Positions 29,961-56,750 of a stretch of DNA of 64,000 nucleotides are shown here, in pieces. The notes under the pieces are model-generated. The model searched no databases, was not told the origin of the DNA, and worked only from the letters and a program-made list of their open reading frames with translations. The position numbers and the translations under genes are program-made. Origin of the DNA: a virus; IMG/VR virus record IMGVR_UViG_3300035670_000014, positions 96,001 to 160,000 of that record. The stretch is one strand, 5' to 3'. Position 1 is the first letter of the stretch, and each line of letters opens with the position of its first letter.

Positions 29961-30535
29961 ATTTGTCTATGGGGGAATAAACCTATTTTAATATTCTTAT
30001 TATGGTACTTATAGGTGTATTGAATGATATCAAGTACTTAGCTTATTTAGTATCTAGAAGATAGATAAACTGTATCTATATTGCCGGCGATTTCCTGTGT
30101 GAAATAAAACCTCCTTTCGATTTCCCTATGGGGAAATAAACCTCTTTTGCTTCTTAAGAAGCCAAGGCTATATGTCTCTTGTGTAATATCAAGGACTTAG
30201 CGGAGTTGGGGTATAAGGCCCTCTTAGGAGGTTGGTACAAGTGGGTCAATTTCACTATGTAAAAATGAACCACCTTTCGATTTCACTATGTAAAAACAAA
30301 CCTCTTTTAGGGCCGGCGTAATACAGAATATACCTGATTGTAATAATATCAAACACTTACAAACTTAGCCTGCTAGATACATCCTAGACCCATATACATA
30401 TAGTGTCAATTTCATATAGGAGAAACAAACCACCTTTCCATTTCCCTGTGGGAAATAAAACCTCTTTAAGGATAAAGAGAGATGAAAGTGAGTCTAGTTG
30501 TAAAAGGGCAGGCCAAGGCTATATGTCTCTTATGC
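29961..30535. repeat. ~160-bp periodic repeat with paired ~30-bp iteron-like units and three IHF-consensus sites
   Basis: Paired units at 30090, 30249 and 30409; WATCAANNNNTTR at 30028, 30187 and 30347. Confidence 0.8.
30381..30409 (-). promoter_or_regulatory. sigma70-like promoter
   Basis: TTGACA-17 nt-TAGGAT on the minus strand. Confidence 0.45.
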
Positions 30536-32318: not shown

Positions 32319-32415
32319 ACAAATCTCCTAATGCTTGCCCCGTATCTGGAAATCAGATACTGATAAGAAAGGCATAATAAAGGCCCCGAAGGGGCCTGGG
32401 TCACAACAGTGGGAT

Positions 32416-32658
32416 TCACCGCGTGTATAACAGATCAGTCGCGAGTTCAAACACTCGGTTAAAGTATTCGAGCTGAGACTGGTTGAGTCTACTATAATTT
32501 GCAATAGTAAACTCCAGAGGATGCGCATCCGGCGTATATTCAATTTCAACATTGAACAACCCAGACTGCAAATCCAGCTTCTTACTCTTGGAAGATAGCA
32601 TGACCCTACATAAGTTGATCACATCTCCCTCTTCAATGAGCTGTTGTATTTTACTCAT
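32416..32658 (-). CDS. hypothetical protein
   Basis: ORF with GAGG RBS. Confidence 0.5.
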   Translation of the reverse strand: MSKIQQLIEEGDVINLCRVMLSSKSKKLDLQSGLFNVEIEYTPDAHPLEFTIANYSRLNQSQLEYFNRVFELATDLLYTR

Positions 32659-33194
32659 CACATCCTCTTGAAAGAAACTTCAGCAACAATCTTGTGATTG
32701 TCGATGAGATCAGGGATTGAGCACAATTTGCCTAAGTCTAACCAAGTCTGAATGTTCCCATTAGGGTCACTTTCAAATCCCAGAATCTCACTAGGACCAC
32801 CCCAAGGAGGAATGGTCCAGGAAGTTACAATGTAACTGTTTCCCTTCTTCCAAAGAAACTGAGATCCCTTGGCATCGGGATTGACCGGCCCAAGAAGTTT
32901 CAACTCACTGAACTTCTCGTTCTGAGTCTTGATCTTGATGATGAACGTCATCTCATTCAAAACATAGTTTTTGAACTTCTGGAAGAACACACACTGTTCA
33001 AACATGTCACTGAATTTGCCATTGATTGCATCAATGACCTCGTACTCGTCCTGAGCGATGAAGACATGAATCTTCTCATACTCAGTGTGGATTGAGATGC
33101 AGTACTCTTTACTTTGAGTACTGTTCCCGAAGCTGTAAGTAGCACCACTCTCAGCTAAAACCTTAGCCGTACAAAAGAAAACATCGTTACTCAT
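32658..33194 (-). CDS. hypothetical protein
   Basis: ORF with AGGAGG RBS downstream of a GAA hairpin. Confidence 0.65.
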   Translation of the reverse strand: MSNDVFFCTAKVLAESGATYSFGNSTQSKEYCISIHTEYEKIHVFIAQDEYEVIDAINGKFSDMFEQCVFFQKFKNYVLNEMTFIIKIKTQNEKFSELKLLGPVNPDAKGSQFLWKKGNSYIVTSWTIPPWGGPSEILGFESDPNGNIQTWLDLGKLCSIPDLIDNHKIVAEVSFKRM

Positions 33195-33358
33195 CTAACC
33201 CTCCTAATCTAAAGTAAAAGGAACCAAGATAAAGGCCCCGAAGGGGCCAAGGTCATTTGTCTCTAATGTCGGAGAGACCCGTGATCAAAAAGCCCCTGAA
33301 CACAGATAACACCAGTATGGTGCACCTGTGCCCAAGGGCATCACGTCCCGAGTGGGAC

Positions 33359-33901
33359 TTAGAACGGCAGGGCCTCGTCTTCCGACGAAGTGGCCACCGG
33401 CTCCGAAGGAGCCGTGGCCTTGCGGCCCGGTCCCCGACGGGCCGGCTGGGCTGCCTCGGTGCCTTGCTTCGCGATCAGCGAAGCAAGGTGGCTGAGTTGC
33501 TCCGGGGTGAAGTTCATTGCTGAACCACCACCTGAACCCGAGCCGCCAGTCGAACCCGACCCACCGCGAGCACGCTCTGCACCGCGGGGATCCAGCGTGA
33601 GCTGGGTCACCTGCATCTTGAGCGCAACGCCGTCCGTCCCGTCCTTACGCTTGAAGGACACGGGCTCCAGCGAAGTAGAGTCCACGGTCAAGAAGTCGCC
33701 CTTGTGGACGTAGCGCTTCACTACGTCTGCGAGCGAGTCGCTGTTGACGTAACAGTCGTGCTGTGTAGCACGAGTCACTTCCACTCCGTTGGCGTCCTTC
33801 CACCGCTTATTGTGGATAAGGCGGAACACCACGGAACCGGAGTCAAGGATCTGAGGGTCTGCTGCAACGTTTCCGGTGACGGAATAATTCTGTCGTGACA
33901 T
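33359..33901 (-). CDS. ssb: Single-stranded DNA-binding protein with acidic PF tail
   Basis: VTGNVAADP, YVHKGD, Gly-rich linker, C-terminal EDEALPF; AGGAGG RBS. Confidence 0.88.
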   Translation of the reverse strand: MSRQNYSVTGNVAADPQILDSGSVVFRLIHNKRWKDANGVEVTRATQHDCYVNSDSLADVVKRYVHKGDFLTVDSTSLEPVSFKRKDGTDGVALKMQVTQLTLDPRGAERARGGSGSTGGSGSGGGSAMNFTPEQLSHLASLIAKQGTEAAQPARRGPGRKATAPSEPVATSSEDEALPF

Positions 33902-34272
33902 GGTGGCACCTCCTGGTGTGTTTGGTAAATGAGCAGGACATGTCAACCTGCTCACCATAAAGGACCCGAAGGGGCCTTGCGCTAGAAGCCTCGGAATGAA
34001 GGCGAAAGGTAGTTGTGTGCACGGCGCTGGGTAATGGACACGGAGCGAGCGAAGCGAGCGGAGTTCGCCGGCTTACAAGAAAGAACTGAGAAAAAAGCCC
34101 CAACTGGGGCTGAGCACCTACTCACGAAGCATTTGCTTGTAGTGAGTAAGTTCTAGCTGGTGGGCGATCTTTATCCGGCGTATCTTGGTTTCCAGCTTGT
34201 CTATGTAGATAGCCAGGCCGGCGTTGCAACCACAGGCAAATACTAAGATGATGTCATACATGAACTGGGGCA

Positions 34273-34765
34273 TCATGACTTCACCAGAGCCATGTCCAGG
34301 AGCCGCTGGACCTTCTGACGATAGACCTGGCGGTCGTAGTCCTCAACTGGAATAGACTGCTGAAGATGAGGCGTGTTGGTCAACTCAAAGACCTGAGCCT
34401 CCAGGTGATTGATTCGCTCAACAAACCTCATCTTCATTTCCCAGATGTACATCCACATGATGATCAACAGGGCAGTCTCAGCAGCGGAAAGGAACATGAG
34501 AAAATTTAAACCAGTATCCATGGCAATCCTCCTGTTTTAGTCCGGCGAAATGCCAGACTTGTCATTATAAAGATCCCGAAGGGATCTTGTGCCCTGTAGC
34601 TTCTTCATTGATCAGACTCGGCCAAGAAGTACGAGCCAGCTGAGCTTCAAGGTTGGCAACTCGGTCAGAGTTGCGCATCTTGAGTTCATAGATGTAAAGC
34701 CAGAGGATCACAACCATTCCGGTCATGAAGGCAGAGAGTGTCATGTAAAAGTAAGTAAAGTCCAT
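34273..34765 (-). CDS. Two paralogous small TM plus coiled-coil proteins (34273-34521, 34565-34765)
   Basis: Shared W.YI.E.KMR...R...LEAQ; each has its own hairpin and leader. Confidence 0.7.
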
Positions 34766-34804
34766 GAGAATCCTCCTGTTTAGTTCAGCGAAATGCTGAA
34801 CGTG

Positions 34805-35062
34805 TCAGGCCAAAGACCCCGAAGGGGTCTGAGTCCCGCAGTAGTTCAAATCATGGTTATTAAGAGTAGAGATCAGAGCCACATAAGACACCTGGATGTC
34901 AAGCCGGGCTCCGTATCCAAATCTTTGCTCGACGTCACGAATGATTCGATGCTCAGCATCACTGCTTGAGCAGCAAACTCTTCCTCTGGCAAGAAAATAC
35001 TCACTCTCTCCAAGTATTGGAGTCTTGAATACTTTAGCTTCGTAGTACCATGGCATTCTCAT
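34805..35062 (-). CDS. hypothetical protein
   Basis: GAGGA RBS, downstream of a GAA hairpin. Confidence 0.6.
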   Translation of the reverse strand: MRMPWYYEAKVFKTPILGESEYFLARGRVCCSSSDAEHRIIRDVEQRFGYGARLDIQVSYVALISTLNNHDLNYCGTQTPSGSLA

Positions 35063-35299
35063 AAGTCCTCCTGTATTTTGGTTTTACTTGGGGTATCCCA
35101 AGTGCAAGATGCAAGTAAAAGATCCCGAAGGGATCTTTGTGCCTTGGAGCTGTTTACTTTTGAGGATAAAGGTCTCTAATGTCGGAGTGCAAGTTTGAAA
35201 AGACGGGGCGTTACGAAAGCCCCTGAACAACGACACTGTTCAATGCGTGCGCCCGCGCTGGTTTTCAGGCCGGCGTACAAAAGTTTAGTCTTCTTCTAG

Positions 35300-35397
35300 A
35301 AAAAAGAAACCCCATAGTGACCAGCTATGGGGGAATTCACTAAGGATACACTAATGTATCAACTCGTGAACTCGGCAGGGAGGGTGTCTGCCTTCTC
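35300..35397 (-). ncRNA. putative ~100-nt ncRNA
   Basis: Lies between the GAA hairpin (35405-35421) and a terminator (35301-35332); stem-loops, no ORF. Confidence 0.45.
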
Positions 35398-35516
35398 ACC
35401 ACATAGTCCCCGAAGGGGACTTGTTCCCTTAGCCAGAGATTATCTGTCTAGTATAAGGGAAATAACTGAAAATGAAAAGCCCCACTAGGGGGCAGAGCGA
35501 GATAGATGATGTTCTT

Positions 35517-35756
35517 CTATTCTGTGATTGAAACAGAATCTTCTGACACCACCGGCTTGATACCCGAGCGACCTTCTACGATCGCCATAAAGCGACCGAG
35601 GAACTGCTCGCTAACACCAAGAGCAGAGATGTACTCTGCTTCAGTGTATTCGACGGTAGCCTCTATCTCCAACTTTAAGGACTTATCCAGAATCCCAGCG
35701 CCAGGGTTAACGAAGGAAGCCGGAACAAGGGCATTGATTCTGAAAGAAGACTTCAC
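35517..35756 (-). CDS. hypothetical protein
   Basis: GTG start after AAGGTG; terminator downstream. Confidence 0.55.
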   Translation of the reverse strand: MKSSFRINALVPASFVNPGAGILDKSLKLEIEATVEYTEAEYISALGVSEQFLGRFMAIVEGRSGIKPVVSEDSVSITE

Positions 35757-35889
35757 TGTTTCACCTTTTAATTGACTGGGGCGAAATTGCCCAGATGGTT
35801 TAATACCCTCGTTGCCATGAGGGCGGAGCCCGATGGTCTGCCTGAGCGAAGCGAACTACGCCGGCGCCAGTTGAAACTCAACTTCCTGC

Positions 35890-36108
35890 TCAATGATAGT
35901 ATGAGAAGTAACTCTCATGGAGCAGTGTGCTGAGGCAGACCAGGGACAATATGGTCGGTGCCCAGAAGAAACCAATCATCATAAAGTGGTCGAAGTTGTT
36001 GATGCTTGAGAAGCCTCGCTTGGCCCCATCAACCTGCTCGTTGGTAAAGCGAACTGTACACATGATTGACAACCACAAGCTAGCAGCAAATGCAAATACC
36101 TGGAACAT
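35890..36108 (-). CDS. small membrane protein
   Basis: Two hydrophobic segments; GAGGTG RBS. Confidence 0.6.
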   Translation of the reverse strand: MFQVFAFAASLWLSIMCTVRFTNEQVDGAKRGFSSINNFDHFMMIGFFWAPTILSLVCLSTLLHESYFSYYH

Positions 36109-36276
36109 AATTCACCTCTAATTTATCAGTAGGAAGAAATAGCCGAAATGGCCGGAGAAAATGCTCGGTCACACTATGGGCCCCGAAGGGGCCCTGGAGC
36201 CTATGTGTCTTGGATGCAGGATAAGAGCTGAAAATGAGAAGCCCCACGAAGGGGCAAGAAAATACCATGGACACAG

Positions 36277-36453
36277 CTAAGCGGGTGTTACGACCACTGG
36301 CTGCATCTGATAGTACCCATAGCCGACTACACCAAGAAGGTAAGCCTCGGCTGACTGCTGTGCCTCCTCCAAAGAGGAGGCTTCAATTGCCCACGTCAAG
36401 ACGAACGGATCGTCCCACGCGGGGCTAAGGTTAAAGTTGGCTCTGAAAAGCAT
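36277..36453 (-). CDS. small hypothetical protein
   Basis: AGGAG RBS; complete hairpin-leader-terminator cassette. Confidence 0.6.
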   Translation of the reverse strand: MLFRANFNLSPAWDDPFVLTWAIEASSLEEAQQSAEAYLLGVVGYGYYQMQPVVVTPA

Positions 36454-36619
36454 GGCAACTCCTGTGGTGCTTTGCACCCGTGTTTGATCCAGGGAATCCC
36501 AGATCTAGTCGACTTATGGGCCCCGAAGGGGCCCTGGAGCCTATATGTCTAAGACTTAGGGTAAAGCTGGAAATGAAAAGCCCCCAGAAGGGGGCAGGCG
36601 GTAGAGTTACCGCAACAGC

Positions 36620-37621
36620 TTAGCGGCCGGTGGCTAGCTTCGCCATTGCAAGCACACCCTCTCGGGTGGCCGCGCCGGCGATGAAGCGTCCAGGGTGACA
36701 GAAGATGGCATCTGCCACTCCAGTCAGAGCCTGAAGCTCCGAGTCACGCTTCGCTGCCCACTCCTCGGGCAGAGGAAGTCGCTTGTCAAACGACCCCTCC
36801 GAGGGAGGAACGCACTGAAGCATCCACTGACCTCTGGGGTCGGGATAGACAACGAAGTCTATCCCTGTGGAGGAGTCAGCGTTAGCAGCGATAACTGGTC
36901 CTTGCCAGGAGCCGCCACGCTCCAGCACCAGCACGGTTTCGCCCTCAGCGAGGGCTTCCTGTGCCAGTTCCAGGATGCGGGCACGATCCAGCTCCGCCTT
37001 CATAGCGGAGCGAATCTCGGCAGCCAGCAGCGTGCCGGCCAACTCGACTGCCCGCTCGAAAGCGGAGTCGAAGTCACCACCGTCCTCGGTGGGGTTCATC
37101 GCGCTGATAGCGCGACTCACCGACCAAACGTTGAGGCCCCGAGGAGCTGCTCCGACGTCTGCAGCGTCCACTGGCTGCACGACCTGTCGGTCGATCAGCT
37201 CCCAGACTGCCTCGGTGGCCGGGTCCGTGGTGTGCCCGCAAACCATGGCGATTGCGGTCCTGCCGAACGCGGCCCATGCCAGCCCGAAGGCTGCATAGGG
37301 AGCACCCTCGGGGGTGCCACCTCGACGGCCAGCAGCGTCCGTAGGCCTCCACTGGTGGTGGTCGAGGTAGTGGAGCGGGCCGGACTGTGCATGGTTGCGC
37401 TGCGTTTCATGACGTCCTCCGACGTCAATGACCGCAATCATGCAGCTGTCCAGGATCTCGGGCTGGCGAGTCCTGACAACAGCCAGACCCTCGCCGCAGT
37501 CAAATGCCAGCGCCGCCACGGCGCAGGCAAACGTCTCGTCTGCGTGGAACACACCATCGTGTGTTCCGATGTGAGCGGGAGCAATTTTGGCTGCAGTTGT
37601 GTCGATGGTATGAATCAGCAT
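36620..37621 (-). CDS. MYG1-family (DHH-like) exonuclease/hydrolase
   Basis: THDGVFHADE, RTR, DVGG, DHHQ, FCHPGRFI. Confidence 0.9.
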   Translation of the reverse strand: MLIHTIDTTAAKIAPAHIGTHDGVFHADETFACAVAALAFDCGEGLAVVRTRQPEILDSCMIAVIDVGGRHETQRNHAQSGPLHYLDHHQWRPTDAAGRRGGTPEGAPYAAFGLAWAAFGRTAIAMVCGHTTDPATEAVWELIDRQVVQPVDAADVGAAPRGLNVWSVSRAISAMNPTEDGGDFDSAFERAVELAGTLLAAEIRSAMKAELDRARILELAQEALAEGETVLVLERGGSWQGPVIAANADSSTGIDFVVYPDPRGQWMLQCVPPSEGSFDKRLPLPEEWAAKRDSELQALTGVADAIFCHPGRFIAGAATREGVLAMAKLATGR

Positions 37622-37767
37622 GACTTCTCCTGTGGCCCAGAGGGCCGGTTTTGACTCGGGGGAGTCCCGAGTCTGGTCGCCTTATGGCACCCGAAGGGTG
37701 CCTGGACTTATAAGTCTCAGATCTAGGCAAGACCTGAGAAAGAAAAAGCCCCTTTCGGGGCGGGGGC

Positions 37768-37986
37768 TCAGGAGCTGGGAAGCCCCGGGAGGTTAATTAA
37801 GTGGGGACGCTCCGTCAACAACCGGAGCGCGGGCTCATCGCCCATACCCGGGCGCAGCACTGCCGCGTAGAGGTCCCTCAGCTTTTCGTAGTGTTTCCAG
37901 GTGTCCATATCGCGGGTTGTCGACGCGATCCACTTTGCATCATGGTAGTTGTTATAGCAAATGCTATGGGCCTCGGCTGCTGTCAT
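37768..37986 (-). CDS. small hypothetical protein
   Basis: GGAGG RBS before MTAAEA; complete cassette. Confidence 0.6.
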   Translation of the reverse strand: MTAAEAHSICYNNYHDAKWIASTTRDMDTWKHYEKLRDLYAAVLRPGMGDEPALRLLTERPHLINLPGLPSS

Positions 37987-38104
37987 AACTCCTCCGGTGG
38001 CGCCATGCGCCGGTTTTTGACTCAGGGAAATCCTGAGTCTGGTCACACTATGGCACCCGAAGGGTGCCTGCAGCCAAAGTCCGTGATATAAGGCAAAAGT
38101 TGAG

Positions 38105-39022
38105 AAATAAAAAACCCCTTTCGGGGTAGTTTACGCTTATTGCAACTCACTTCCGGTTTCATCACCGGCTGGACCCTTCACCTTTACTACCAGCCCTATG
38201 ATAGGGTATAGTTGCGACCGAAAGGTCGCAGCTGGTCGCTTCCGCGCGAATAGCGCCGCAGTCAACTATCCACCGGTTTGCACCCCGATGGTAGTCCTGC
38301 TAATATGAGTCTAGGTGACTCACAATAAGGGACCCGAAGGGTCCCTGCAGCTAAAACAACGTAAGAAAAAAGCCCAATCTTGCGACTGAGCTTAATCCCC
38401 ACCTTCGGTGTATGTTTCGTGGTCTCATCACTCCAACCGCCACTTTCAGCGGGCCTTGGCAGGCGACGTGTTTCGGTTGTTCCTTGCCTAAGGGAAGCCT
38501 AGGTCATAATCTTGACCAATAGAAAAACCCCGAAGGGGTGCATGTCTTTATAAGAAAAATACCCAACCTGCAGATTGAGTAAATTTCCGAAGAGTGGCCA
38601 CTCTTCTACCCGAATACCAGAGCCTCTGGTGTTCCCCTCGGGTCAGGGGGGCTTTGACATGCCAAAATTATTCTCCCCAAGTTGTCAGCTTGGGGACCCA
38701 GTTGTCGCTGGGATGGGGACTTCGCTCCCTGGGGTGACAGCCTCCCCTTGGGTTCGTATGCACGGTATCAGCGTGCTTAGATACGAAGAACATACCATGG
38801 TACCCGAAGGGTACCTGCAGTAAAAGCGGCGTATACAAATCTTTTCTTCTAGAAAAAAATACCCGCCTAGCGGAGTTCCAATAGTCAAACTATAAGTCTA
38901 ACTACAAAGGAAAAGAGAACCCCTGCTCGCACCGCCACCTCCAATGGGAGATGACAGACACGACAGGGGGAGGTTCGCTGCGCTAGACTAGGCAGGCCTC
39001 ATGTGGCGGGGGGACCACACTC
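38105..39022 (-). ncRNA. Four tandem ORF-less structured transcription units (~38105-38321, 38365-38517, 38553-38791, 38852-39022)
   Basis: Each starts after a GAA hairpin and ends in a hairpin plus U-tract; dense stem-loops. Confidence 0.6.
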
Positions 39023-39125
39023 ACAAGAAGGCACCCGAAGGGTGCCTGCAAGTGTGTCCGAATGTCCGGCCGGCAGGGTGTCCGGCAGGGTGTGCGGAGC
39101 CCGCGAAGCGGGCAAGCTAGCGGAG

Positions 39126-42100
39126 TTATTCCTTGAAGAACTTCTCCACGTACTTCTTGGCCGCAAGCTTGACTTTTGGCAGATTTGCAACCTTACACAG
39201 AAGCTGGCCAAGGTGATTCTCACCTTTACCCTTACACTTACCCCAGAAGGTATCACCCCAGTGGTTATTTTCCACAGGAGTAACTTTGCCGCCCGAAGTT
39301 GCAGCGTAAAGGCGAAAAGCCAAATACATTCCTTCTGGAGTATCTGCTTGGTCAGCAAACTTAGACTCCAGGATGCAGTACATGACATCTAACCTTAAAG
39401 CCTCCCAGGTTGCCATTGCATCAGGTGAAGAAGGCTTAAAGTCCTTAGCCTTCTTCTTTGCCGTGTACCCGTTGTCAGTAGGAAGAATAGTGTTTTCTTC
39501 TTGATTGAGAATATTACACTTAATCCACTGATACAAGGTCTCACTTGAGGCAAAGACAACACCATCTGCCACTACGGAGCACGGATACATGTTAGACATA
39601 AACTCAAAGTCCTTAGACTTAAAGTTATCAGTCTCACTGATTACCAGTTGTCCATAGTGGCTCTTTCGAGCTGAAGGCTCGTGCTCGGTCGACTTATTTG
39701 CCAGCTTCAACAAGATGTCACCGTGACACTTCTTGGGTGCACACCAGCACACTAAGTCCTTGCCTTTCAATTCATGCAAAGATTTCATGAGTTCTGGTTG
39801 TTGTACTACCCAGTCAGCGTACTTCTCCACAGCTTCGTCTCGCGTCTGACACTTCCACTTGGCTGATGTTTCAGCCTGGTGGCTAAATGGATTACCCCAC
39901 TTAGTAGGGCGTCCAATGTAGACTGCGGTTTCGGGAGCCGTGTTGGCATGCTTGTTGTGCACCACTGGCAAGCCAGGAGGAGTCGGAGGCGTGTCATTAA
40001 CAACACCAACCAAAGACACATGACGAGCATTCTTCTTGCCCAAGGCAAGATACTTGTCATAGGTGTCCTTAACACCTCCAATTGGTCCGTTCTCCCCAAA
40101 GGTAAAGGCAATCAAGAAGTCCGAATCTTCCGCAATCAGAGTATTGCGATCAAACAGGCCCTTGATCTCTCCACTCTGGAAAGTTACCTGGTGCCGCTCA
40201 TCCCGAGGATCATTCCAGTAGGTATTAACCATTGCCTGGATGTCCTCAAGAGACCAGGACTGGCTTTCGCCGTCAGTCATGGCAAGGCTAAACTGCCGGT
40301 GATACTTATTCATGGCATCACCTGCGTCGTTTGCCTCTTTGACAGTAAAGGCATTATTCTCAAACTCAGCACCAAGGTGCAAAGTAAGAGCTTCAACCTC
40401 TGCGCCCATGAGGAGGGATATTGCAACATGGTCAGACCAAGCCGCACCTCCACTGACAAGACGAATCGCCTCGGCACCAGTTGCAGCCTTAATTGCTGCA
40501 ACAGCCTTCTTGGTGCGCTCAACCATGAACAAGAAATGTTCTTTGGTCAAGTTCTCACCGCGGCCAGCGGTGCCAATAACACCCAGAGTCACCGTCTTCT
40601 CAGGCAAACGGTAGTAGCCGTCGATGTCCTCGGTGCGATTATCGCCATCGCCGTCAAAAGTGACGACATAACGACTCTCATCGTTCCCAAGGAAGCTGAT
40701 ACCAGAGTAACCAGCTGCCTTCACTCGTGTGAAGAAGGCGTTGCTGTTGTCCCCTGGATTCAGCAGGTCGAACGGCTTACCAGTCTCCCGGTAGTGCTCA
40801 GACCGCAGCTGCTCGTAGGCCGCCCTTCCATCCTTGGACAGTCTAACCAAGAAGTTGGTAAGGTCAACCTTACGGGAGTCAATCTGACTTCCATAGGTCT
40901 TTGCCTCCTCCTTGTCCTCGGTCCAGTACTGGAATTCACGTCCATCGCTCCTACCATGAAGACCCTGATAGACAGTGACCTCAGCAGCAACTTCTGGTTC
41001 GACTTCTACTTCTGCTGGCCCTGGCTCAGGATCAGAGCCACTACAGAAGTCAAGAGACAGCTGATAGCGGTAGGAGTGACAGCCACTTCCATCTTCATCT
41101 CCGTAGAACCAGAACAAAAGAGGCTCTGAGAAATGGTGCAGGAAGTGCTCCATGAAAGCTTCATCCATGTCCCCTTGTTCCTCGAAGTACCCTACCTCAA
41201 TGTAGAGGCCAGTATAGCCTCTCTTCTTGAGGTACAGGAAGAATTCACCATCAGACTTCAGGTCCTCAATGAAGTCTTCACGAGTCTGCAGTGACTTAAC
41301 ATCAAGGCAGTACTCGATGTGGATCTTGAGGAGCTGACGAAGGCTGCTGGGCGACTCAATGACCAGCATAGCCGACCTATCAAAGACTCTATAGTCTCCG
41401 ACGCCTGCCATGGAAGCTTGACTAGCAAGCCAGGTCGAGAAGTCCTCTTCCTCTTCCTCATCCCCCTCGTAGTACTTAGACGCAAGGATAAGGTTTGGAT
41501 CAGGATCTGTAAATGGATGCCTATAAGTAGGCACTTCCACTTCAGGTTCCGCCTTCACCTCAGTCTTGATCTCGACTACCTCAGACTCGACAACCTCAGG
41601 CTTAGCCTCGACAACTTCAGCCTCGATCACCTCACTGTAAGTGAAGTCCTCGACTGCCACATCTTCGAGACCATCGAAGTCGTAGTTGTCGAAGTCCACA
41701 TCAGTGTGATAGCCGATGGGGCCTGAGGTGTAGTCCACCTGCTCAACCGAAGGAGCGAACTCCGACAGGTCCAGCTTGCCGAGAGGAGAAACCTCGCCCT
41801 CAAATGCAACCGTGACCTTAAAGGTCGGGTGCAGAACCTGCACCGCTGGGTTGCTTGCCTTGGTATTCCCGGTCACATCAGTTTCGATGCTGATGACACG
41901 GTACTTGTCAAGGCCCTTGTGGGAGATAAACTCCTCAAGCAGCTCGGGGGTGACGACCTTCGTGTCTTTGAAGAAATCCCTGAAGGCCGTGTTGATCAAG
42001 GTTGTAGCACCCCTCTCAACCCTCAGCTTGCCAAGGAAATTCTCACCCTTGGTCTTGAGGATTCCACCACGCAGAACGTCACTCAGAAGCTGACCAACAA

Positions 42101-45100
42101 CCTCAGAGTTGATCTGAGAAGCAACCTCAGAATCAAGCACGAAGGCATCGCCAAACTCTGACTTCCGCTTGACCATCGGGGTCTTGATGTCAAGTCCCAA
42201 CTCAGCCACGTCAGGCCCCTTGCCATTGATGAAGGCAAAGTAGGCCTTCCCGAAGTCCTTATACTCGTCGTTAAACGAGAAACCAAGGACAACGGTGCTC
42301 TGAGGAGCGGAAGCGCCCAGGACATTCAGGGCCTTGAGCGAGTAGACCCAAGGACCCTCAGGCAGGCCGTCAGCAGACATGACCGGCGTCCCGTCCTCAT
42401 TCAGGTAGTTGCCCACATACAGAGTGTGGATGGGCAGCTTGTCAACCTGAATTGAACCGAAGCTCCGGCGGCCGCTCTTGATGAACTGCTCGCAGGAAAG
42501 CGCCCGCTCAGGATTGGCCTGGTCAGTCTTGAACGCGTTCGCACGCTTGACCAGCTGGAGGAAGGTCCAGAGGGCAAAGCGCAGCTTGCCAGACTCATTC
42601 CAGGCATGCCACTCCTTGAGCCAGGCCTGCTCGACAGCTGCCCTTGCACGGATTCGGCTCTTCTTGTCAAGAGGAAGAGCTTCAACCTGGGCAATCTTGT
42701 CGAATCGACCCCTGTTCAAGCGAGAGCAGAAGTCTGCAAAACCTGCAATCTCTGCCTCGTGGGTGCCAAGGGCAGCCTCAAGCTGAAGCCAGGGTGACTC
42801 CTCAAGAGTCTGCTCGACCTGCTCGAAGGCGATCCGCAACACGGAATCCTTGTACTTCTCGAACAAGTCAAAGACCCATGAAGTAGCACGCTCAACCTTC
42901 ACGTTCTTGAACGCAAAGTGCAGTGCCTTGATGCCCTGACCGGTCGCAGCATCACCCTCCTGAAGGAGCTGACTCTGCCCAGCAAAAGGAGCCGCAAAGG
43001 CCGCAATGCCACGCTTCATCAGCCAGCCAGGGAAGTAGAACTTCATCTGGCTTGCAGGCAGCATGTGCATGCTGTACGAGACGGTAGTTTCACCCTCGTA
43101 CTTTTCGACCTTCTTGCTCGGGTCGCCGAACAGAGCAAGGCCCATGTACATGGAAACAGACCAGATCATCTGCATGACCTTTACTGCCTCCGGCACATTC
43201 TGACCCTGAGTGTCGGCGTCGATGACGTTCGACAGCATCTCTGACATGGTCAGCAAGATGAGGTCGAGGTAGGTCAAGGACTTCCACTCACCGTTCGGGT
43301 CAAGGCCATCAGACTCAATTACTGACCTGACGTTTGCCCTGAGGTTAAACTTGTCACCAAAGTGAACAAGCCCCTGCATGATGGCACCCATCAGCATCTG
43401 CACGTTAGCTGCAGTACCAGTGGTGCCCTTCATGTTCTCCAGTGCAAAGATTGCACTGTCGACCCTCTCCAGAGGAGAGCTGAACACCCGGAGGTTGCCG
43501 CTCGTGTCAAGTGCACCCTCGGTGAAGTACCTCTCGGCAAACTGCAGCTTCGCCATGTTCATGATGAACGCAGTCAAGCCGACTGGGATAGTCGAAGGGG
43601 GAAGCTTGGCATTCGTTTTACCTTCTGCCTGCTTCCTATTCCTCCGCTCCTCAGCCTTCAGGTGAGCGTTGTTCAGCTCCTTGAGGACGAAGTCGTTGGC
43701 TGCCCTGTCTCCAACAAGGTCACGAACCAAAGCCTCGTCGTCTCCGCCAAAGCCAAAGGAGTACCAGCCTTTGAAGTCAAAGCGGGTATCCAGTGCCATG
43801 TGCCGGAACTGACCGACCTGAGAGTTCAGGAAGTCAAGAGCCACCTTCCTCTTCTCCTCGCCGGGAGTCATGGCAATAATGGCCTGCTTCTTGCGCTCCT
43901 GGAAGCGGATGCAAGACTTGGCCAAGTCGCCGTGAATCTCCGCCATCCGGTCGTCAAGGTCTGCACCGTCCTGTGCCTTGAAGAAGATTTCAAAGGCCTC
44001 AGGAGTTGGCATGACCCAGCGGCACCCGACTGGCACCGAGTCCATTGGGACAAGGATACCCCATGCTCCCGACTTGAAAGTCGAAGGGTTCCGGTAATAG
44101 AACACCAACGGGGAGCCATGCAGACCCATGATCCGGTTGTAATCTGCAGTGTTGCAGAAAATAACCCGGTTGTAATCATAGGTCAAGCCAAGTGGCTTGA
44201 GGTGATTCTCGACCAGAGACTTAATCTGCTCCTCAGATACTGCATTCTTATATGCAGACCAAAGAGCCTTCGTCTCGTCCTTGACGTTGAGCTTCATCAC
44301 CTCAGCTACGGCCTCAAACATCAGGCCAGGGTGCACCTGCGGATACACCGACTCAGCGATCTTGGTATACACCATCTCGCCGTTGGCGTTTGGCATCTTC
44401 AATGCCAAGGGCAGTCGGGTCCTTGCAGGGTCCATTGCCTGATTGGTGAGCTGGTTCATGATTGGCGCTACCAGCTGAGGCAGAGGAATGCCGTTCCCAA
44501 TCACCTTAGCAGTCCCACCGAGGACCTCCTTGAGGCGGCTCGCAGCGAGGAGTGCGTCAGCAACGCCTTCAGGCTCTGACTCATCCCCATCCATGAGGTC
44601 GGTGAAGATCTCAGAGTCAAGCTCTGACATTTCGTTCTTCACTCTCAGGTTGGAGAGAATCTCCTCAAGGCGGGTCGTTGCATCCTCTTCAATCTTCTTG
44701 AAGATGTCAATGACCGCCGGATCCCTCAGGTCAAACCCGTTGATCAGGCTCTGAGTGTCAGTGCAGACACCCTTACGAGCCTTCGGGACACCCGAGTTCA
44801 GGATGATCGTAGCTCGATCATCTGACCAGGTGGGGCAGATTTCACCCTTTGACCCGTAGGCAATCATGTCCTTCCCAGTAGCCTTCATGAACTCTGGAGA
44901 CATGATGTGGAAGCCACCCTTCACCATGAAGTTGGTGAAGTAGGCTCGGCCAATGAGGATCTTCCCATCGAGCTTGCCTGCCTTGAGGTCAGCCAGATAG
45001 TCCTGAGGCAGCACGAGAGCCATGAGGCGGCGAGAGACAAACACCACGCCGTCATAGATCTCATCGGCAAGCATTGCTGCCTTAGCCTTCTCGAACAGGC

Positions 45101-46136
45101 TGTCACCGTTAACTGGCTTGACGACCAGGACAGAGTCCTTAAGAGCATTAAGCTTGAAGGTCTGCCCTTCCAGCTTGTAGCTCTTATTGAACTCAACGAC
45201 CTTGCCACGGAGCAAGTTCGGCGCAAAGTACTGAGAAATGTACTTCTGCGCCTTCGCTGCAGCCTGCACCTGCTTCGCCGGTGAGCCGTCCTCTTTGACC
45301 TTCACTCCATAGACGCAAGAAGCAAGCTTCATTGCTTCGTCGTCAGTTGCCTTAGACAAGGCATCATTGGTCAAGTTGAGGAACAAGCAGGTGGGGTTGA
45401 CATCGGGAGTCTTATCAATTCCCTTGTCGCTCTCCTCCCAGGTCTCCCCAGCGGCCTCAGCTGCCTTCCGCTTCAACTCCCTGAGCTGCTTCTTCTCAGC
45501 CTTCTTGGAGGCCTCGATTCGTCGCTCATAGAGTGAGTCCATCGAGTCTTTGCTGAGAGCATTGACCAGAGAGGTCCTGGCAGCAACCTCGACCTGCTCG
45601 GACCCATAGTTGGTCTGAATCAGGTTGAGTGTTGCCCATGCCTGAGCAAGCTCGCCCGCAGTCAGGTGGCGCAGGTCGCCGTGCTTCTTCAGACAGTCAA
45701 GCGCTCGCTTGACCGTGAAGTAGAAGTCAATGCTTGCGCCTGAGCTTGGAGCCCGGTGCAGGTGATGCAAAGACTTCTGCCAGACATTGACGTCGCCAGG
45801 CTTCACGTTAAACGGCTTAAAGCCGTAAAACTTCTCAAAAGCGGCCATGATTTCTGCCGTCTTCTGAGCATACGGTGCCATGGAGTCAACGTGGACCTTG
45901 TAGGCCACCTTGGCATCTTTCTCGTCAAATCCTGGCCAGTTGAAAAGCTCAGGAGACGTCAGGTTGAGTCCAACCTTATGCCCAAGCAGAACACGGATCA
46001 TTGCCACTGCCGCAGGCAATACGAGGGACTTGTAGTCTTCCTCGTTGCAGCGGATAGCCTCGATGTTCTCAGACTTCAGCGTCTTGAAGAGTTCGAGTGC
46101 CTGGTCATTGGCTACTTCTACTTTCACTTCGCTCAT
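39126..46136 (-). CDS. Two-barrel single-chain RNA polymerase (YonO/QDE-1-like) fused to ART-like, SLOG, DUF4326 and NADAR domains
   Basis: YDGVVFVSRRL, GR...VKG, YRNP, DGADLDD, TGTAAN, SNVIDADTQG; C-terminal GRPTKWGNPF/CWCAPKKCHGD and SN.Y..ENNHWGDTFWG..GENHLG; AGGAGG RBS before ATG 46136. Confidence 0.75.
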   Translation of the reverse strand: MSEVKVEVANDQALELFKTLKSENIEAIRCNEEDYKSLVLPAAVAMIRVLLGHKVGLNLTSPELFNWPGFDEKDAKVAYKVHVDSMAPYAQKTAEIMAAFEKFYGFKPFNVKPGDVNVWQKSLHHLHRAPSSGASIDFYFTVKRALDCLKKHGDLRHLTAGELAQAWATLNLIQTNYGSEQVEVAARTSLVNALSKDSMDSLYERRIEASKKAEKKQLRELKRKAAEAAGETWEESDKGIDKTPDVNPTCLFLNLTNDALSKATDDEAMKLASCVYGVKVKEDGSPAKQVQAAAKAQKYISQYFAPNLLRGKVVEFNKSYKLEGQTFKLNALKDSVLVVKPVNGDSLFEKAKAAMLADEIYDGVVFVSRRLMALVLPQDYLADLKAGKLDGKILIGRAYFTNFMVKGGFHIMSPEFMKATGKDMIAYGSKGEICPTWSDDRATIILNSGVPKARKGVCTDTQSLINGFDLRDPAVIDIFKKIEEDATTRLEEILSNLRVKNEMSELDSEIFTDLMDGDESEPEGVADALLAASRLKEVLGGTAKVIGNGIPLPQLVAPIMNQLTNQAMDPARTRLPLALKMPNANGEMVYTKIAESVYPQVHPGLMFEAVAEVMKLNVKDETKALWSAYKNAVSEEQIKSLVENHLKPLGLTYDYNRVIFCNTADYNRIMGLHGSPLVFYYRNPSTFKSGAWGILVPMDSVPVGCRWVMPTPEAFEIFFKAQDGADLDDRMAEIHGDLAKSCIRFQERKKQAIIAMTPGEEKRKVALDFLNSQVGQFRHMALDTRFDFKGWYSFGFGGDDEALVRDLVGDRAANDFVLKELNNAHLKAEERRNRKQAEGKTNAKLPPSTIPVGLTAFIMNMAKLQFAERYFTEGALDTSGNLRVFSSPLERVDSAIFALENMKGTTGTAANVQMLMGAIMQGLVHFGDKFNLRANVRSVIESDGLDPNGEWKSLTYLDLILLTMSEMLSNVIDADTQGQNVPEAVKVMQMIWSVSMYMGLALFGDPSKKVEKYEGETTVSYSMHMLPASQMKFYFPGWLMKRGIAAFAAPFAGQSQLLQEGDAATGQGIKALHFAFKNVKVERATSWVFDLFEKYKDSVLRIAFEQVEQTLEESPWLQLEAALGTHEAEIAGFADFCSRLNRGRFDKIAQVEALPLDKKSRIRARAAVEQAWLKEWHAWNESGKLRFALWTFLQLVKRANAFKTDQANPERALSCEQFIKSGRRSFGSIQVDKLPIHTLYVGNYLNEDGTPVMSADGLPEGPWVYSLKALNVLGASAPQSTVVLGFSFNDEYKDFGKAYFAFINGKGPDVAELGLDIKTPMVKRKSEFGDAFVLDSEVASQINSEVVGQLLSDVLRGGILKTKGENFLGKLRVERGATTLINTAFRDFFKDTKVVTPELLEEFISHKGLDKYRVISIETDVTGNTKASNPAVQVLHPTFKVTVAFEGEVSPLGKLDLSEFAPSVEQVDYTSGPIGYHTDVDFDNYDFDGLEDVAVEDFTYSEVIEAEVVEAKPEVVESEVVEIKTEVKAEPEVEVPTYRHPFTDPDPNLILASKYYEGDEEEEEDFSTWLASQASMAGVGDYRVFDRSAMLVIESPSSLRQLLKIHIEYCLDVKSLQTREDFIEDLKSDGEFFLYLKKRGYTGLYIEVGYFEEQGDMDEAFMEHFLHHFSEPLLFWFYGDEDGSGCHSYRYQLSLDFCSGSDPEPGPAEVEVEPEVAAEVTVYQGLHGRSDGREFQYWTEDKEEAKTYGSQIDSRKVDLTNFLVRLSKDGRAAYEQLRSEHYRETGKPFDLLNPGDNSNAFFTRVKAAGYSGISFLGNDESRYVVTFDGDGDNRTEDIDGYYRLPEKTVTLGVIGTAGRGENLTKEHFLFMVERTKKAVAAIKAATGAEAIRLVSGGAAWSDHVAISLLMGAEVEALTLHLGAEFENNAFTVKEANDAGDAMNKYHRQFSLAMTDGESQSWSLEDIQAMVNTYWNDPRDERHQVTFQSGEIKGLFDRNTLIAEDSDFLIAFTFGENGPIGGVKDTYDKYLALGKKNARHVSLVGVVNDTPPTPPGLPVVHNKHANTAPETAVYIGRPTKWGNPFSHQAETSAKWKCQTRDEAVEKYADWVVQQPELMKSLHELKGKDLVCWCAPKKCHGDILLKLANKSTEHEPSARKSHYGQLVISETDNFKSKDFEFMSNMYPCSVVADGVVFASSETLYQWIKCNILNQEENTILPTDNGYTAKKKAKDFKPSSPDAMATWEALRLDVMYCILESKFADQADTPEGMYLAFRLYAATSGGKVTPVENNHWGDTFWGKCKGKGENHLGQLLCKVANLPKVKLAAKKYVEKFFKE

Positions 46137-46219
46137 GAGACCCTCCTGGTCTACGTGGGGTTGGTTCCCCTGGTCATTTGCATCCGGCAGACTATCTGCC
46201 TTTTGCACAGTAATAATTG

Positions 46220-46954
46220 TCATGACTTGGCCTTAGGCTCGGCTAAGCAGGGTGACTGCAAACCCTCCGAAGGAGGGTCGGGCCATGCTTGCTCTGTATC
46301 CAGAGCAAGGTAAGCAGCCTCGGCAGCTGCCTGCTCCTCAAGCTGGCAGTCGTGCATCCACTGGTCGAACATTGCCTGAGACCAAGCAAGCTCGTCATCA
46401 TCAGTGAAGTGCCTAGACCTGTCCGCTGCAGCAGGTACTTGCTCGACCCACTTCTCCAAAGCTCGTTCCAGTTCCCATCGCTGGAATTCCAGGTTTGGCC
46501 AGTCATTGCCAAGGAACAGGGAACAGCCCATGGCCGAGGGCAAGCTGGCCATAGAGAAGACCTCAGCCTCCTCCTCAACATGCCACTGATCGTAGCTGTT
46601 AATGGCTTGAGCCCAGCGGATTCGGACCCCGCAGCTCAGAACCTGCCCTTTTTCCTGAGCCTGAGCCCACTCGATCTGCTCTCGCAGCTCCGAGTAGTAC
46701 TCATCCCAGTCGTGCATGGTAGCGTAAGATACGCCACCCACTGCAACCTCAGTGTTGAGGCTGTAGAAGTGCGAATCCTGACGCAACATCTCTGCCGCGA
46801 CCTCGGCTGCTTCCTCAGTAGTTTCCCACTGAGCAAGGAGATCAGGGCACTCGTCCGCCTTACTGGCCTTGAACTTACCCACAATCATAGAGATCATAAG
46901 CTTAAAGTATTTCATTTTATTACCCTCGTGTTGTTTGGTTTGCTGGTTGAGCAA
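46220..46954 (-). CDS. acidic hypothetical protein
   Basis: ORF; likely start MKYFK at 46915 after GAGG. Confidence 0.6.
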   Translation of the reverse strand: MLNQQTKQHEGNKMKYFKLMISMIVGKFKASKADECPDLLAQWETTEEAAEVAAEMLRQDSHFYSLNTEVAVGGVSYATMHDWDEYYSELREQIEWAQAQEKGQVLSCGVRIRWAQAINSYDQWHVEEEAEVFSMASLPSAMGCSLFLGNDWPNLEFQRWELERALEKWVEQVPAAADRSRHFTDDDELAWSQAMFDQWMHDCQLEEQAAAEAAYLALDTEQAWPDPPSEGLQSPCLAEPKAKS

Positions 46955-48978: not shown

Positions 48979-49416
48979 TTATGCCCAGTTTCTACTCTTG
49001 GCCTTGAGGGGCCTGTGGTACCTGGGCTCCGGTGGTGGGAGCTTTGCCGGCTCCCACTCCTGGGCCCAGGCCAGTCGCTCTTCCGCCTCCCGCTCCAAGC
49101 GGGCCCGGAGGCGGCGGTCGGCCTCCGCCTCTTCCCGGGCGGCCTTGGCCGCCTGGGCCTCCCGCACCAGGCGGGCGTCTTTCGACGCCCACTCATTTTC
49201 CCAGGCCGAGCACCTGGGTACGTAGTCGGGCATTGGGGCCTGCGCCCAGAGTGGGCGCTGGTCCTTGGGTGCGGGGGCCGGGGCAGGTGCGGCGGCGGTA
49301 GTGCTGGTGGTTGCGGTGGGGGTGGTGGCGGTGATGGCAGCCATGGCCCGAGCTTCTGCTCGGGCAACGATGACTATGACTACGACGACAATAACAACGA
49401 TGATGTCAAGCAACAT
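48979..49416 (-). CDS. membrane-anchored Ala/Pro-rich protein
   Basis: N-terminal Val/Ile TM segment; GGGAG RBS supplied by the repeat. Confidence 0.65.
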   Translation of the reverse strand: MLLDIIVVIVVVVIVIVARAEARAMAAITATTPTATTSTTAAAPAPAPAPKDQRPLWAQAPMPDYVPRCSAWENEWASKDARLVREAQAAKAAREEAEADRRLRARLEREAEERLAWAQEWEPAKLPPPEPRYHRPLKAKSRNWA

Positions 49417-49542
49417 GAGCGAAACTCCCGACTAGTACCTACTAGCCTTAATGGGATGGATAGGAAATGAGACAGAATGTCTCATTCCCCATGAAAAAAG
49501 AATGCAACCAGGCCGAAGCCTGGCTGCATTCTTCAATCTTCC

Positions 49543-49728
49543 TTACTTAGCCCGAGTCCTCCAGGCATGAAGGAACTTAACTGGATGCATTACTGCATCC
49601 AAAAAGTCAAGGAAAGTGACCGGGTCTGCGCCCAGGTGGGCCCATGCCCACTCCGCGACGACGTAGATCAGGAAGGCCACCGATGCCAGAACGAGGATAG
49701 AAACAGCCACCAAGAACAATGTGAACAT
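49543..49728 (-). CDS. small membrane protein
   Basis: One TM segment; RBS supplied by the repeat. Confidence 0.65.
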   Translation of the reverse strand: MFTLFLVAVSILVLASVAFLIYVVAEWAWAHLGADPVTFLDFLDAVMHPVKFLHAWRTRAK

Positions 49729-49853
49729 GGCGAACTCCCGGCTAGCGACACGCTAGCCTTATTGGGATCAATAGGAAATGAGACAGAATGTCTCATTCCC
49801 CATGAAAAAAGAATGCAACCAGGCCGAAGCCTGGCTGCATTCTTTAATCTTAC

Positions 49854-50156
49854 TTACCAGCTATCGACAAAAGCGTCGACAAGCTGACCCCAGGTCACCC
49901 AGTCCTGGCACGCCAACCCAAGCTCGTCGTGCCAGCCCAGGTCGGGGTCCATGCCCCCGAGCTCGCTGAGGATCACGACTGTGTCCCACATTGCGCCAGA
50001 TGGAGTTCCCTTGAAGAGGAACTCGGCCGTCAGGCGGTCGATCCCATGGGGGCCGACGTAACCCACTGTAAAATCTCCGCTGTAGCTGAGGATGTTGGGG
50101 CAGTAGCCCAGCAGGATGCGGGTGGCGGTGATGGTGGTGGTAGTGGTGTTCTGCAT
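49854..50156 (-). CDS. hypothetical protein
   Basis: Start MQNTTT; RBS supplied by the repeat. Confidence 0.65.
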   Translation of the reverse strand: MQNTTTTTITATRILLGYCPNILSYSGDFTVGYVGPHGIDRLTAEFLFKGTPSGAMWDTVVILSELGGMDPDLGWHDELGLACQDWVTWGQLVDAFVDSW

Positions 50157-50284
50157 GGCGAAACTCCCGGCTAGCGACACGCTAGCCATGATGGGATGGA
50201 TAGGAAATGAGACAGAATGTCTCATTCCCCATGAAAAAAGAATGCAACCAGGCCGAAGCCTGGTTGCACCTTTAATCTTAGACC

Positions 50285-50626
50285 TTACTTCCTAGCAAGG
50301 CAGGCACTCATTGCCTGCCAGTGTTGGTCGAGAGTGGGGCGAGCAAAGCCAACCTCCACTTCGTTGTAGGACATCATTGAAACTGGGGATCCGTCCTCCC
50401 TACAGGAAAGGACGGCCAAAACGCCGTCCTTTCGGTGAAGTGATTTTACCCATCCCGCTCCGGGCACTGCCCAAAGAACAATTCCCTGGTTGATGCGGTG
50501 AGCATCAAACCAGATGGTGTTGGCGAGGGGGCTGCAGATCTCGCTGTTAGCGACGGCGTGGTCGGCCTCGGTGATGATCTGTGCGGCGTTGGGAACAATG
50601 AGAGCGATGATGGTAGCGTTCAACAT
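50285..50626 (-). CDS. hypothetical protein
   Basis: AGGAG RBS. Confidence 0.65.
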   Translation of the reverse strand: MLNATIIALIVPNAAQIITEADHAVANSEICSPLANTIWFDAHRINQGIVLWAVPGAGWVKSLHRKDGVLAVLSCREDGSPVSMMSYNEVEVGFARPTLDQHWQAMSACLARK

Positions 50627-56724: not shown

Positions 56725-56750
56725 GTTTAAGTAATAATTGGAGATATTAG

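Follow-up and report, generated by a model that had tools for sequence, protein, structure and literature searches.

Putative non-coding RNA genes in a tandem array behind the gene for a two-barrel RNA polymerase in a phage genome

Introduction

What is made from a stretch of phage DNA that carries promoter-like hairpins and terminators but offers no evident reading frame? The question is raised by a locus in IMG/VR virus record IMGVR_UViG_3300035670_000014, a 170,948-bp viral contig with direct terminal repeats. We analysed bases 96001-160000 of this contig, 64,000 nucleotides that we call the window; coordinates are those of the window unless a relative is named. Four units without open reading frames (ORFs), U1 to U4, form an array at 38109-39046 on the minus strand, directly downstream of the gene for a 2365-aa polymerase. 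Units of this type occur at the corresponding place in five lineages of related phages known from metagenomes. The original prediction, made from the sequence letters, had described them as an array of phage small RNAs acting as decoys, antitoxin mimics or polymerase regulators. On balance we favour the view that U1-U4, together with a fifth unit, U9, are independently transcribed, putative non-coding RNA genes, consisting of a conserved core and swappable accessory units.

Results

Four units share one plan

All four units are built alike. A GC hairpin, its loop TTC(G), is followed by an invariant G, a 5′ stem-loop, a body of 150-240 nt and an intrinsic terminator. The presumed start G lies about 8 nt past the hairpin, and a small stem-loop follows it immediately. 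The hairpin cores match CCCTTCGGG and lie on the minus strand at 39042-39034 (U1), 38811-38803 (U2), 38537-38529 (U3) and 38341-38333 (U4). This core occurs 15 times in the window, always on the minus strand and always within 32385-39042, against a chance expectation of 0.3; the rest of the genome has just two matches, both unrelated. When the 15 sites were aligned by eye, the G was invariant in all of them, 12 nt after TTCGGG and 16 nt from the loop centre, and the outer stems covaried. For U1-U4 it is found at 39022, 38791, 38517 and 38321, the minus-strand start points that had been proposed. The units measure 170, 237, 152 and 213 nt respectively, close to the earlier estimates of about 170, 240, 155 and 215 nt.

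A consensus scan placed terminator-like sites at 38874-38862 (U1), 38581-38560 (U2), 38393-38370 (U3, with the sequence AAGCUCAGUC-GCAA-GAUUGGGCUU) and 38127-38114 (U4). Every unit thus ends in a stem and a T-run, as the predicted hairpin and U-tract required. A consensus scan for sigma-70-like promoters on the minus strand inside the array found none.

In three related loci (L012, L016 and L027; see below) the hairpin loop is TTC, closed by T-A or C-G. Because the closing pair varies among relatives, the constant element is the TTC triloop rather than a UUCG tetraloop. Read on the template strand the triloop is GAA, which accounts for the GAA hairpin of the original prediction.

The same observations bear on the idea that the hairpins are not promoters, and that the region is a long 3′ untranslated tail of the polymerase mRNA from which small RNAs are processed. 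C(UUCG)G is a very stable RNA tetraloop, and several hairpins in the relatives run into TTTT and score as terminators. However, most hairpins stand 20-50 nt behind a full terminator with a long T-run and most have no T-run of their own, the G at a fixed distance is invariant, and the TTC loops of L012, L016 and L027, with their T-A or C-G closing pairs, show that UUCG is not conserved. We regard a processed 3′ tail as quite improbable.

Two further sequence elements were seen near the hairpins and terminators. Just past several terminators a palindrome, TTCTAGAA, recurs, followed 10-15 nt on by TA(T)ACGCCGC; copies lie at 38825-38852 and 35270-35298 in the window, at about 19275-19320 in L012, and at about 11170-11200 and 12610 in L017. 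This element may be an operator or a second type of promoter. In L027, a TTC-triloop hairpin is present at 9920-9935, about 65 nt ahead of the polymerase start codon; unlike L027, the window has no such hairpin ahead of its polymerase gene.

The units lack conserved reading frames

To assess coding potential, all 15 hairpin units were screened by listing every start codon preceded by a Shine-Dalgarno-like word. Ten of the 15 are cassettes with AGGAG or GGAGG and an ATG 57-88 nt past the hairpin, opening ORFs of 58-333 aa. No such ribosome-binding site (RBS) with ATG was found in U1-U4 or U9, so the contrast with neighbouring cassettes drawn in the original prediction stands. The sole tempting micro-ORF is in U1, where GGAGG-N5-GTG precedes 15 codons' worth of peptide (15 aa), and its GTG is GAG in four of four relatives (L019, L017, L016 and L012), including L019, which is 96% identical to the window.

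Frames of at least eight codons were then mapped onto the unit alignments. Those common to all sequences of U1 and U2 lie in invariant nucleotides and start inside a hairpin arm, and they end at differing places because of indels, whose lengths in these two units are for the most part not divisible by three. Only one U2 frame is shared with L012, and the L012 changes within it are non-synonymous. A blastx comparison of the ORF-less units of the window and its relatives with the ORFs of at least 35 aa of the genome and related loci detected no residual protein similarity, returning just self-matches and homologous RNA regions. The units were accordingly rejected as remnants of coding cassettes. 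Taken together, the lack of an RBS-ATG, the unconserved frames and the lack of protein similarity lead us to take the units as non-coding.

Short frames do occur in each unit, for example the 15-aa frame of U1 and frames of 25-40 aa that run through the terminators of U3 and U4, and these could conceivably encode micro-peptides translated without a canonical RBS. We consider this very improbable. Start codon, frame and stop are never conserved together, the frames shared in U1 and U2 have the invariant setting, hairpin-internal starts and shifted ends described above, the only shared U2 frame changes non-synonymously, and the true cassettes all use a strong AGGAG.

U1, U2 and U9 are conserved and other units turn over

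A large protein collection contained three relatives of the polymerase, with about 49% identity. Their contigs (L012-L015, L016 and L017) have the gene order of the window, and in each a gene-free 0.7-1.4 kb past the polymerase stop carries the same type of hairpin. L019 was recovered from JGI metagenomes with a U1 DNA pattern; the other match to that pattern, L018, was a chance bacterial hit. L028 and L029, both L012-like at 96%, were reached through C-terminal polymerase fragments, and L027, whose polymerase is merely 31% identical, through a profile search. Contigs with MYG1 homologues (L020-L026) were set aside because they did not reach the array or came from phage without these hairpins. 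No relatives were found in IMG/VR with the polymerase protein, the polymerase alignment or three DNA patterns, none in JGI metagenomes scanned with the polymerase alignment, and no similar DNA among GenBank phages.

ORF-less hairpin units stand behind the polymerase gene in L012-15, L016, L017, L019, L028, L029 and L027. The identity of U1 to its counterparts in L012, L016 and L017 is 74-89%, and that of U2 ranges from about 68% (full length, L012) to 86%; both are 96% identical in L019. Coding genes in the same pairwise comparisons (L012, L016 and L017) show 67-89% identity. U1 and U2 are therefore as conserved as coding genes. U1 is present in all lineages checked, L028 and L029 included, apart from the distant L027, in which a search for a homologue found none. 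Only L016 and L027 lack a complete U2; there a different body is joined to the U2 3′ module, which covariance model R1 recognised in both (E 4e-5 and E 0.001 respectively). Neither U1 nor U2 has a paralogue within the genome.

The remaining positions are variable. U3 is shared with L019 only and U4 has no counterpart in any relative. Positions 3 and 4 are filled in L017 and L012 by ORF-less units of other, unrelated sequence, one of which (unit 4 of L017, 367 nt) folds with a z-score of -6.5; in sister phages the replacements of accessory units are unrelated putative RNAs, 180-370 nt in length. Behind the polymerase gene of L027 stand two ORF-less units, with z-scores of -3.3 and -3.1. This pattern of presence and absence shows that the slot is conserved, that its first two occupants are conserved in the closer relatives, and that the rest turn over. 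In L017, about 100 N at 12176-12274, directly behind a promoter-like hairpin, mask the next unit.

Comparison of an accessory ORF-less unit between L012 (19927-20207) and L028 (2039-2335) revealed a mosaic of identical and replaced blocks. Its indels are of 2, 3, 2, 4 and 12 nt and the predicted helices are kept, in phages that are otherwise 96% identical.

The fifth ORF-less unit, U9, lies at 35300-35397 on the minus strand (hairpin core 35417-35409). It is about 98 nt long and consists of three hairpins, the third being the terminator. Copies in four other lineages have 89-95% nucleotide identity to U9, a level that no coding gene in the comparison exceeds, and the columns that vary are nearly all compensatory. 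Because of this conservation we rank U9 first among the candidates for a functional small RNA in the phage. As it lies outside the slot behind the polymerase gene, ORF-less units are not peculiar to that slot.

The units might instead matter as DNA or through the act of transcription. In that case promoters and four strong terminators would form a bank that shields the transcription of the polymerase gene itself from the polymerase-dependent genes further down, or that captures the first polymerase molecules; alternatively, U3 and U4 are drifting cassettes that have lost their ORFs. In favour of a bank, the four tandem terminators stand right behind a gene that is long and presumably strongly expressed, and the 3′ hairpin of that gene lacks a T-run. 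The lack of diverged homologues of U3 and U4, the differences between sister phages at these positions, and the folding of U2 and U3, which is no better than background (see below), fit a bank or decay. On the other hand, the bodies of U1, U2 and U9, beyond their promoters and terminators, are conserved at least as well as coding genes. Decay is further opposed by the blastx search, which found no former ORF, by sister phages, which hold large, well-folded RNAs such as the 367-nt unit of L017 in place of decayed sequence, and by the L012 and L028 accessory unit, which changes in blocks and retains its predicted helices. We therefore hold the bank or decay explanation to be unlikely.

Anatomy of the individual units

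The promoter-like hairpin of U1, GGCACCC-TTCG-GGGTGCC, lies at 39030-39046 on the minus strand and was identified by core search and alignment. Its equivalent in L012, L016, L028 and L029 is GCACCT-TTC-AGGTGC, in which the closing pair has changed from C-G to T-A. U1 itself (38853-39022, minus strand) begins with the 5′ stem-loop, followed by a linker with the invariant UCUAGCGC and a predicted, G-U-rich hairpin of about 21 pairs; beyond these come a tract rich in U, another hairpin, which is small, and a second terminator.

In an alignment of U1 from five lineages (A2), 93.7% of cells are paired. L012 and L016 do not maintain the outer, rod-closing helix (76.7% of cells paired), and the long hairpin alone is conserved. 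U1 has a minimum free energy of -75.5 kcal/mol in the sense orientation and -49.9 kcal/mol in the antisense orientation, with 13 G-U pairs. Many of the pairs of the long hairpin are G-U, and its U-G to C-G changes preserve pairing on the minus strand only. The advantage of 26 kcal/mol for the sense fold points to selection on the RNA of the minus strand, and not on a DNA cruciform. The original prediction held that G-U pairs fix the minus-strand sense of the units; this is clearly so for U1 only, as the folding energy of U2 shows no strand preference.

The U2 promoter-like hairpin is at 38799-38815 and U2 at 38555-38791, both on the minus strand; the hairpin was located by core search and alignment, and the unit was defined from alignments A3 and A8. 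U2 opens with a three-helix domain at its 5′ end, varies in its centre and closes with a conserved 3′ module, composed of a 7-bp hairpin and then a GGAAAUUUACUCAA..UUGGGUAUUUUU terminator. A hammerhead-like reading of the three-helix domain was rejected by eye, since the loop is not conserved in L012. U3 (38366-38517, minus strand) is known from the window and L019 only. Its promoter-like hairpin (38527-38539, minus strand) is the weakest of the four, a 5-bp stem followed by TTTTTC. The U4 hairpin (38329-38345, minus strand), placed by alignment, corresponds in L019 to GTAACCC..GGGTTAC, a doubly compensated stem. U4 itself (38109-38321, minus strand) had no homologue in any of the sequences searched.

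An 11-nt direct repeat, AACTCCGCTAG, brackets U1 in every close relative, and variants of it occur ahead of other hairpins. Copy 1 (39117-39127, minus strand) overlaps the polymerase stop codon and is equally placed in L012, L016, L017 and L019. Copy 2 (38867-38877, minus strand) falls within the 3′ part of U1. A predicted helix joins it to the invariant CUAGCG in the U1 linker; this helix (alignment columns 40-48 with 159-167) is itself invariant and so uninformative on covariation. Further sites with the motif are at 30197-30207 in the window, at 19012, 19256 and 21273 in L012, and at 10882, 11143 and 12723 in L017, and L027 has AACTCCGCT twice past the polymerase stop (16070-16110). The repeat could serve to bind a protein, to mark a recombination boundary or to pair with CUAGCG in U1.

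Between the polymerase stop and the U1 hairpin, Tandem Repeats Finder detected a cluster of short repeats (39055-39097, minus strand). It consists of a 12-nt unit repeated 2.3 times and includes three of the 16 copies of CGGACA in the genome (171 kb). The arrangement is iteron-like, and similar repeats are present in relatives.

Such repeats invite comparison with a replication origin. In T7, the tandem promoters phi1.1A and phi1.1B, at the primary origin, lie directly after gene 1 and ahead of DNA-metabolism genes. The array occupies the same position, the short-repeat cluster is conserved and the spacers between units are AT-rich. The region might thus be a T7-like, transcription-activated origin in which the upstream repeats are protein sites and the transcripts prime replication or open the DNA. 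Against this, a strong terminator ends each transcript, the bodies are GC-rich and conserved, the U1 hairpin is selected on the RNA strand, as its 13 G-U pairs and weaker antisense fold indicate, and the cumulative GC skew turns at about 48-50 kb of the window, away from the array. An origin seems to us improbable.

The upstream gene encodes a two-barrel RNA polymerase

The 2365-aa protein is encoded at 39126-46223 on the minus strand. Pfam recognised DUF4326 and NADAR domains at its C terminus and no known domain in its first 2000 residues, and in a sequence search of PDB the NADAR domain was the sole match. A model from four close sequences had a predicted local distance difference test score (pLDDT) of 33 and was unusable. 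A profile search added 12 distant homologues, giving an alignment of 16 sequences, with which AlphaFold modelled the core (residues 320-1340) at pLDDT 77 and a predicted template-modelling score (pTM) of 0.74.

When this model was compared with PDB using Foldseek, all 16 hits at E <= 0.001 were two-barrel RNA polymerases (RNAPs). The top matches were QDE-1 of Neurospora (E 6e-8) and the virion RNAP of crAss-like phage phi14:2 (6vr4, E 1.3e-6), the Thermus phage RNAP P32 gp64 was also among the hits, and P23-45 gp96, P74 gp62 and plant RDR2 followed at E 1e-3 to 7e-3; the Thermus phage RNAP structures matched by fold were 8f72, 8h2n and 8f5m. The T7-like N4 mini-vRNAP gave no credible match (Foldseek probability 0.03-0.06). 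Residues D436, D438 and D439 of a DGADxDD loop, which departs from the canonical DxDGD, are invariant in all 16 homologues. By fold and acidic loop the protein belongs with the two-barrel single-subunit RNAPs (QDE-1/YonO/crAss gp66/P23-45 gp64), and the original description of the array as lying downstream of a polymerase is right.

The array, the hairpin cassettes and the polymerase gene all lie within a block of 50-60% G+C (26000-50000 of the window), compared with about 36% over most of the remaining genome. A 1150-1445-aa protein with a staphylococcal-nuclease-like domain is encoded in all relatives on the strand opposite the polymerase gene (window 52417-56724; L012 1781-6118; L027 612-4064).

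No known RNA family or antisense target was detected

At the gathering score, a search of the whole window against Rfam 15 produced no match in the units and six tRNAs elsewhere. The best hit of a permissive search of 37950-39150 had an E value of 7, and a search of the relatives found nothing within units. Thus no family matches any unit, and the Rfam comparison envisaged at the outset does not assign them to a known class. Three specific identities were also rejected: a tRNA-like RNA, because ARAGORN finds nothing in the region; 6S RNA, because the 6S model does not match and the U1 outer helix is broken in L012 and L016; and a ToxI-type antitoxin RNA, because the units have no tandem 34-36-nt repeats and no Rfam match. 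The only tandem repeat of the region is the 12-nt unit described above, which is outside the units. No antisense targets were found in the phage genome, the best matches being of 18-19 nt with one mismatch (E 0.02-0.1), which we treated as chance.

Observations that weigh against RNA genes

Several observations count against regarding the units as RNA genes, beginning with their folding. The single-sequence fold z-scores are -5.6 (U1), -2.6 (U2), -2.0 (U3) and -4.2 (U4), so the units are highly structured in absolute terms, as had been claimed. However, 200-nt coding windows from the same minus-strand block gave mean z-scores of -3.0 in the sense and -3.2 in the antisense orientation; for low-GC minus-strand genes the mean was -2.1 and for plus-strand late genes -0.6. 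Neighbouring coding sequence therefore folds equally well, structure does not set the units apart from local background, and we dropped the fold z-score as evidence. Since the background is high on both strands, local self-complementarity is a property of the whole early/middle region, and the high folding potential of the minus-strand block is a DNA-level property. Along the window, 200-nt segments of both strands had mean z-scores of -2.1 to -3.2 over 1-48000, compared with -0.6 over 49000-64000.

Covariation met a similar difficulty. The tests used 4-6 sequences, and the alignment that was tested also supplied the structure. For U2 the consensus fold comprises 71 pairs, 12 of them compensated, with 96.8% of cells paired; none of 500 shuffles reached these values, and slid controls had 0-2 compensated pairs. 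With six sequences there were 63 pairs, 13 compensated, and the 5′ three-helix domain had almost no broken cells. Yet a 240-nt window of MYG1 coding sequence behaved in the same way, with 10 of 47 pairs compensated, 93% of cells paired and 0-1 of 500 shuffles doing as well. The test therefore does not separate RNA genes from coding sequence here. The compensated pairs that the original prediction would have looked for are present in U2, and we count them as compatible with RNA genes but not as decisive.

In the scan the U3 hairpin is as terminator-like as it is promoter-like, and as neither U3 nor U4 has a diverged homologue, there is no sign of selection on them. A last point concerns transcription. 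Anatomy, missing coding features, conservation, synteny and the polymerase fold are read directly from the data, but we infer, solely from where the hairpins lie and what they occur with, that they act as promoters and are read by the upstream polymerase, and likewise that the RNAs accumulate as discrete products.

Discussion

The idea of a small-RNA array is partly upheld by these results. In its favour are a hairpin and terminator for each unit, the lack of an RBS-ATG or a conserved ORF, the conservation of U1 and U2, and a slot that is kept as far as a polymerase of 31% identity. The proposed roles as decoys, antitoxin mimics or polymerase regulators gain nothing from the searches, which found no ToxI-like repeats, no 6S or other Rfam match and no antisense target.

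If the units are RNA genes, each would probably be transcribed from its own hairpin promoter by the phage two-barrel RNAP. Transcription would begin at the invariant G and stop at the intrinsic terminator, to give discrete RNAs of about 100-240 nt that open with a 5′ stem-loop. On this model the core members U1, U2 and U9 would be kept across lineages, and the accessory U3 and U4 would be replaced in sister phages. Accessory units seem to move between phages as cassettes that run from promoter to terminator, with shared boundaries.

The hairpins resemble the promoters of N4-like phages. In LUZ7, hairpin promoters with a 3-nt loop direct starts at a G 13-14 bp from the hairpin centre (PMC9163698), and late, overlapping ORF-less transcripts of less than 250 nt arise from an intergenic region. 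The 15 hairpins described here likewise combine a GC stem of 5-7 bp, a 3-nt loop and a G at a fixed distance, and genes for single-stranded DNA-binding protein are found among the hairpin cassettes. There are three differences. The presumed start G is 16 nt from the loop centre, not 13-14; the adjacent polymerase is two-barrel and not T7-like as is the N4 vRNAP, and is the presumed reader of the hairpins; and the LUZ7 small RNAs overlap instead of forming a tandem array of separate units, and have no sequence relation to those described here.

A parallel for the polymerase is the Thermus phage P23-45, in which a virion RNAP fused to the tape measure makes a non-virion two-barrel RNAP, which transcribes early genes (10.1101/2022.12.01.518664). 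The 2365-aa protein has a core whose fold matches that of these phage RNAPs, gp64 being the non-virion two-barrel enzyme of P23-45. The promoters of P23-45 differ, having AT-rich and GC-rich motifs, and the text describing them contains neither 'hairpin' nor 'non-coding' (10.1101/2022.12.01.518664). The two-polymerase scheme of P23-45 offers a reasonable frame for this phage.

The array also shares with T7 the placing of promoter-like elements immediately downstream of the phage RNAP gene. In T7, however, transcription carries on through genes 1.1 and 1.2, in contrast to terminated, structured RNAs without ORFs. The PeSL cassettes of T4-type phages are small, are bounded by repeated promoter and terminator sequences and are shuffled among related genomes. 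Comparable behaviour is seen in L016, which keeps the U2 3′ module with a different body, and in the block differences between L012 and L028; PeSL cassettes, in contrast, hold small ORFs and host-polymerase promoters. Decoy RNAs (pseudo-ToxI and CRISPR-repeat mimics) and 6S RNA are comparable in that they are non-coding RNAs made by phages or acting on polymerase. The units differ from pseudo-ToxI and 6S in lacking 34-36-nt tandem repeats and Rfam hits, and in the loss of the rod-closing helix of U1 from L012 and L016.

Most phage small RNAs described so far come from single genes or are products of processing. Of the features of a bacterial-type trans-acting small RNA gene, a terminator and the absence of an RBS-led ORF are seen in the units, and a promoter for each is predicted. 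They would be new RNA families in a new arrangement, within the known kind of phage-encoded non-coding RNAs.

What such RNAs would do can be suggested with less confidence. One possible role, offered tentatively, is to act as decoys or sponges that bind proteins of the host or the phage during takeover. Pairing with mRNAs is a more doubtful proposal; we prefer decoys because of the size and multi-helix folds of the RNAs, the turnover of accessory units and the absence of antisense targets in the phage genome. The hints in this direction are weak: large multi-helical RNAs, exchange in blocks or cassettes, and the NADAR domain of the polymerase. Exchange of this kind between close relatives is a pattern typical of counter-defence loci. 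It is also conceivable, though we would not expect it, that the slot belongs to a phage clade not described before and is set aside for RNA genes, in which case U1 and U2 would work with or on the polymerase (as cofactor, template or timer), and strain-specific structured RNAs, swapped between phages as units from promoter to terminator, would be decoys that bind proteins of host defences.

If the RNAs are real, five of the 15 promoter-driven cassettes in the phage's own transcription programme yield RNA and not protein, and at least three new RNA families (U1, U2 and U9) would be added. The four tandem units right after the polymerase gene, and the split between a core and a fast-changing accessory set, would distinguish the locus from known cases. 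With one single-chain polymerase, one type of hairpin promoter and short, defined products, it would also be a simple system to rebuild in vitro. Should the accessory units be decoys, these phages would trade RNA counter-defences as cassettes, and if the slot is indeed a dedicated RNA locus, it would be the RNA equivalent of anti-defence islands that in other phages encode proteins.

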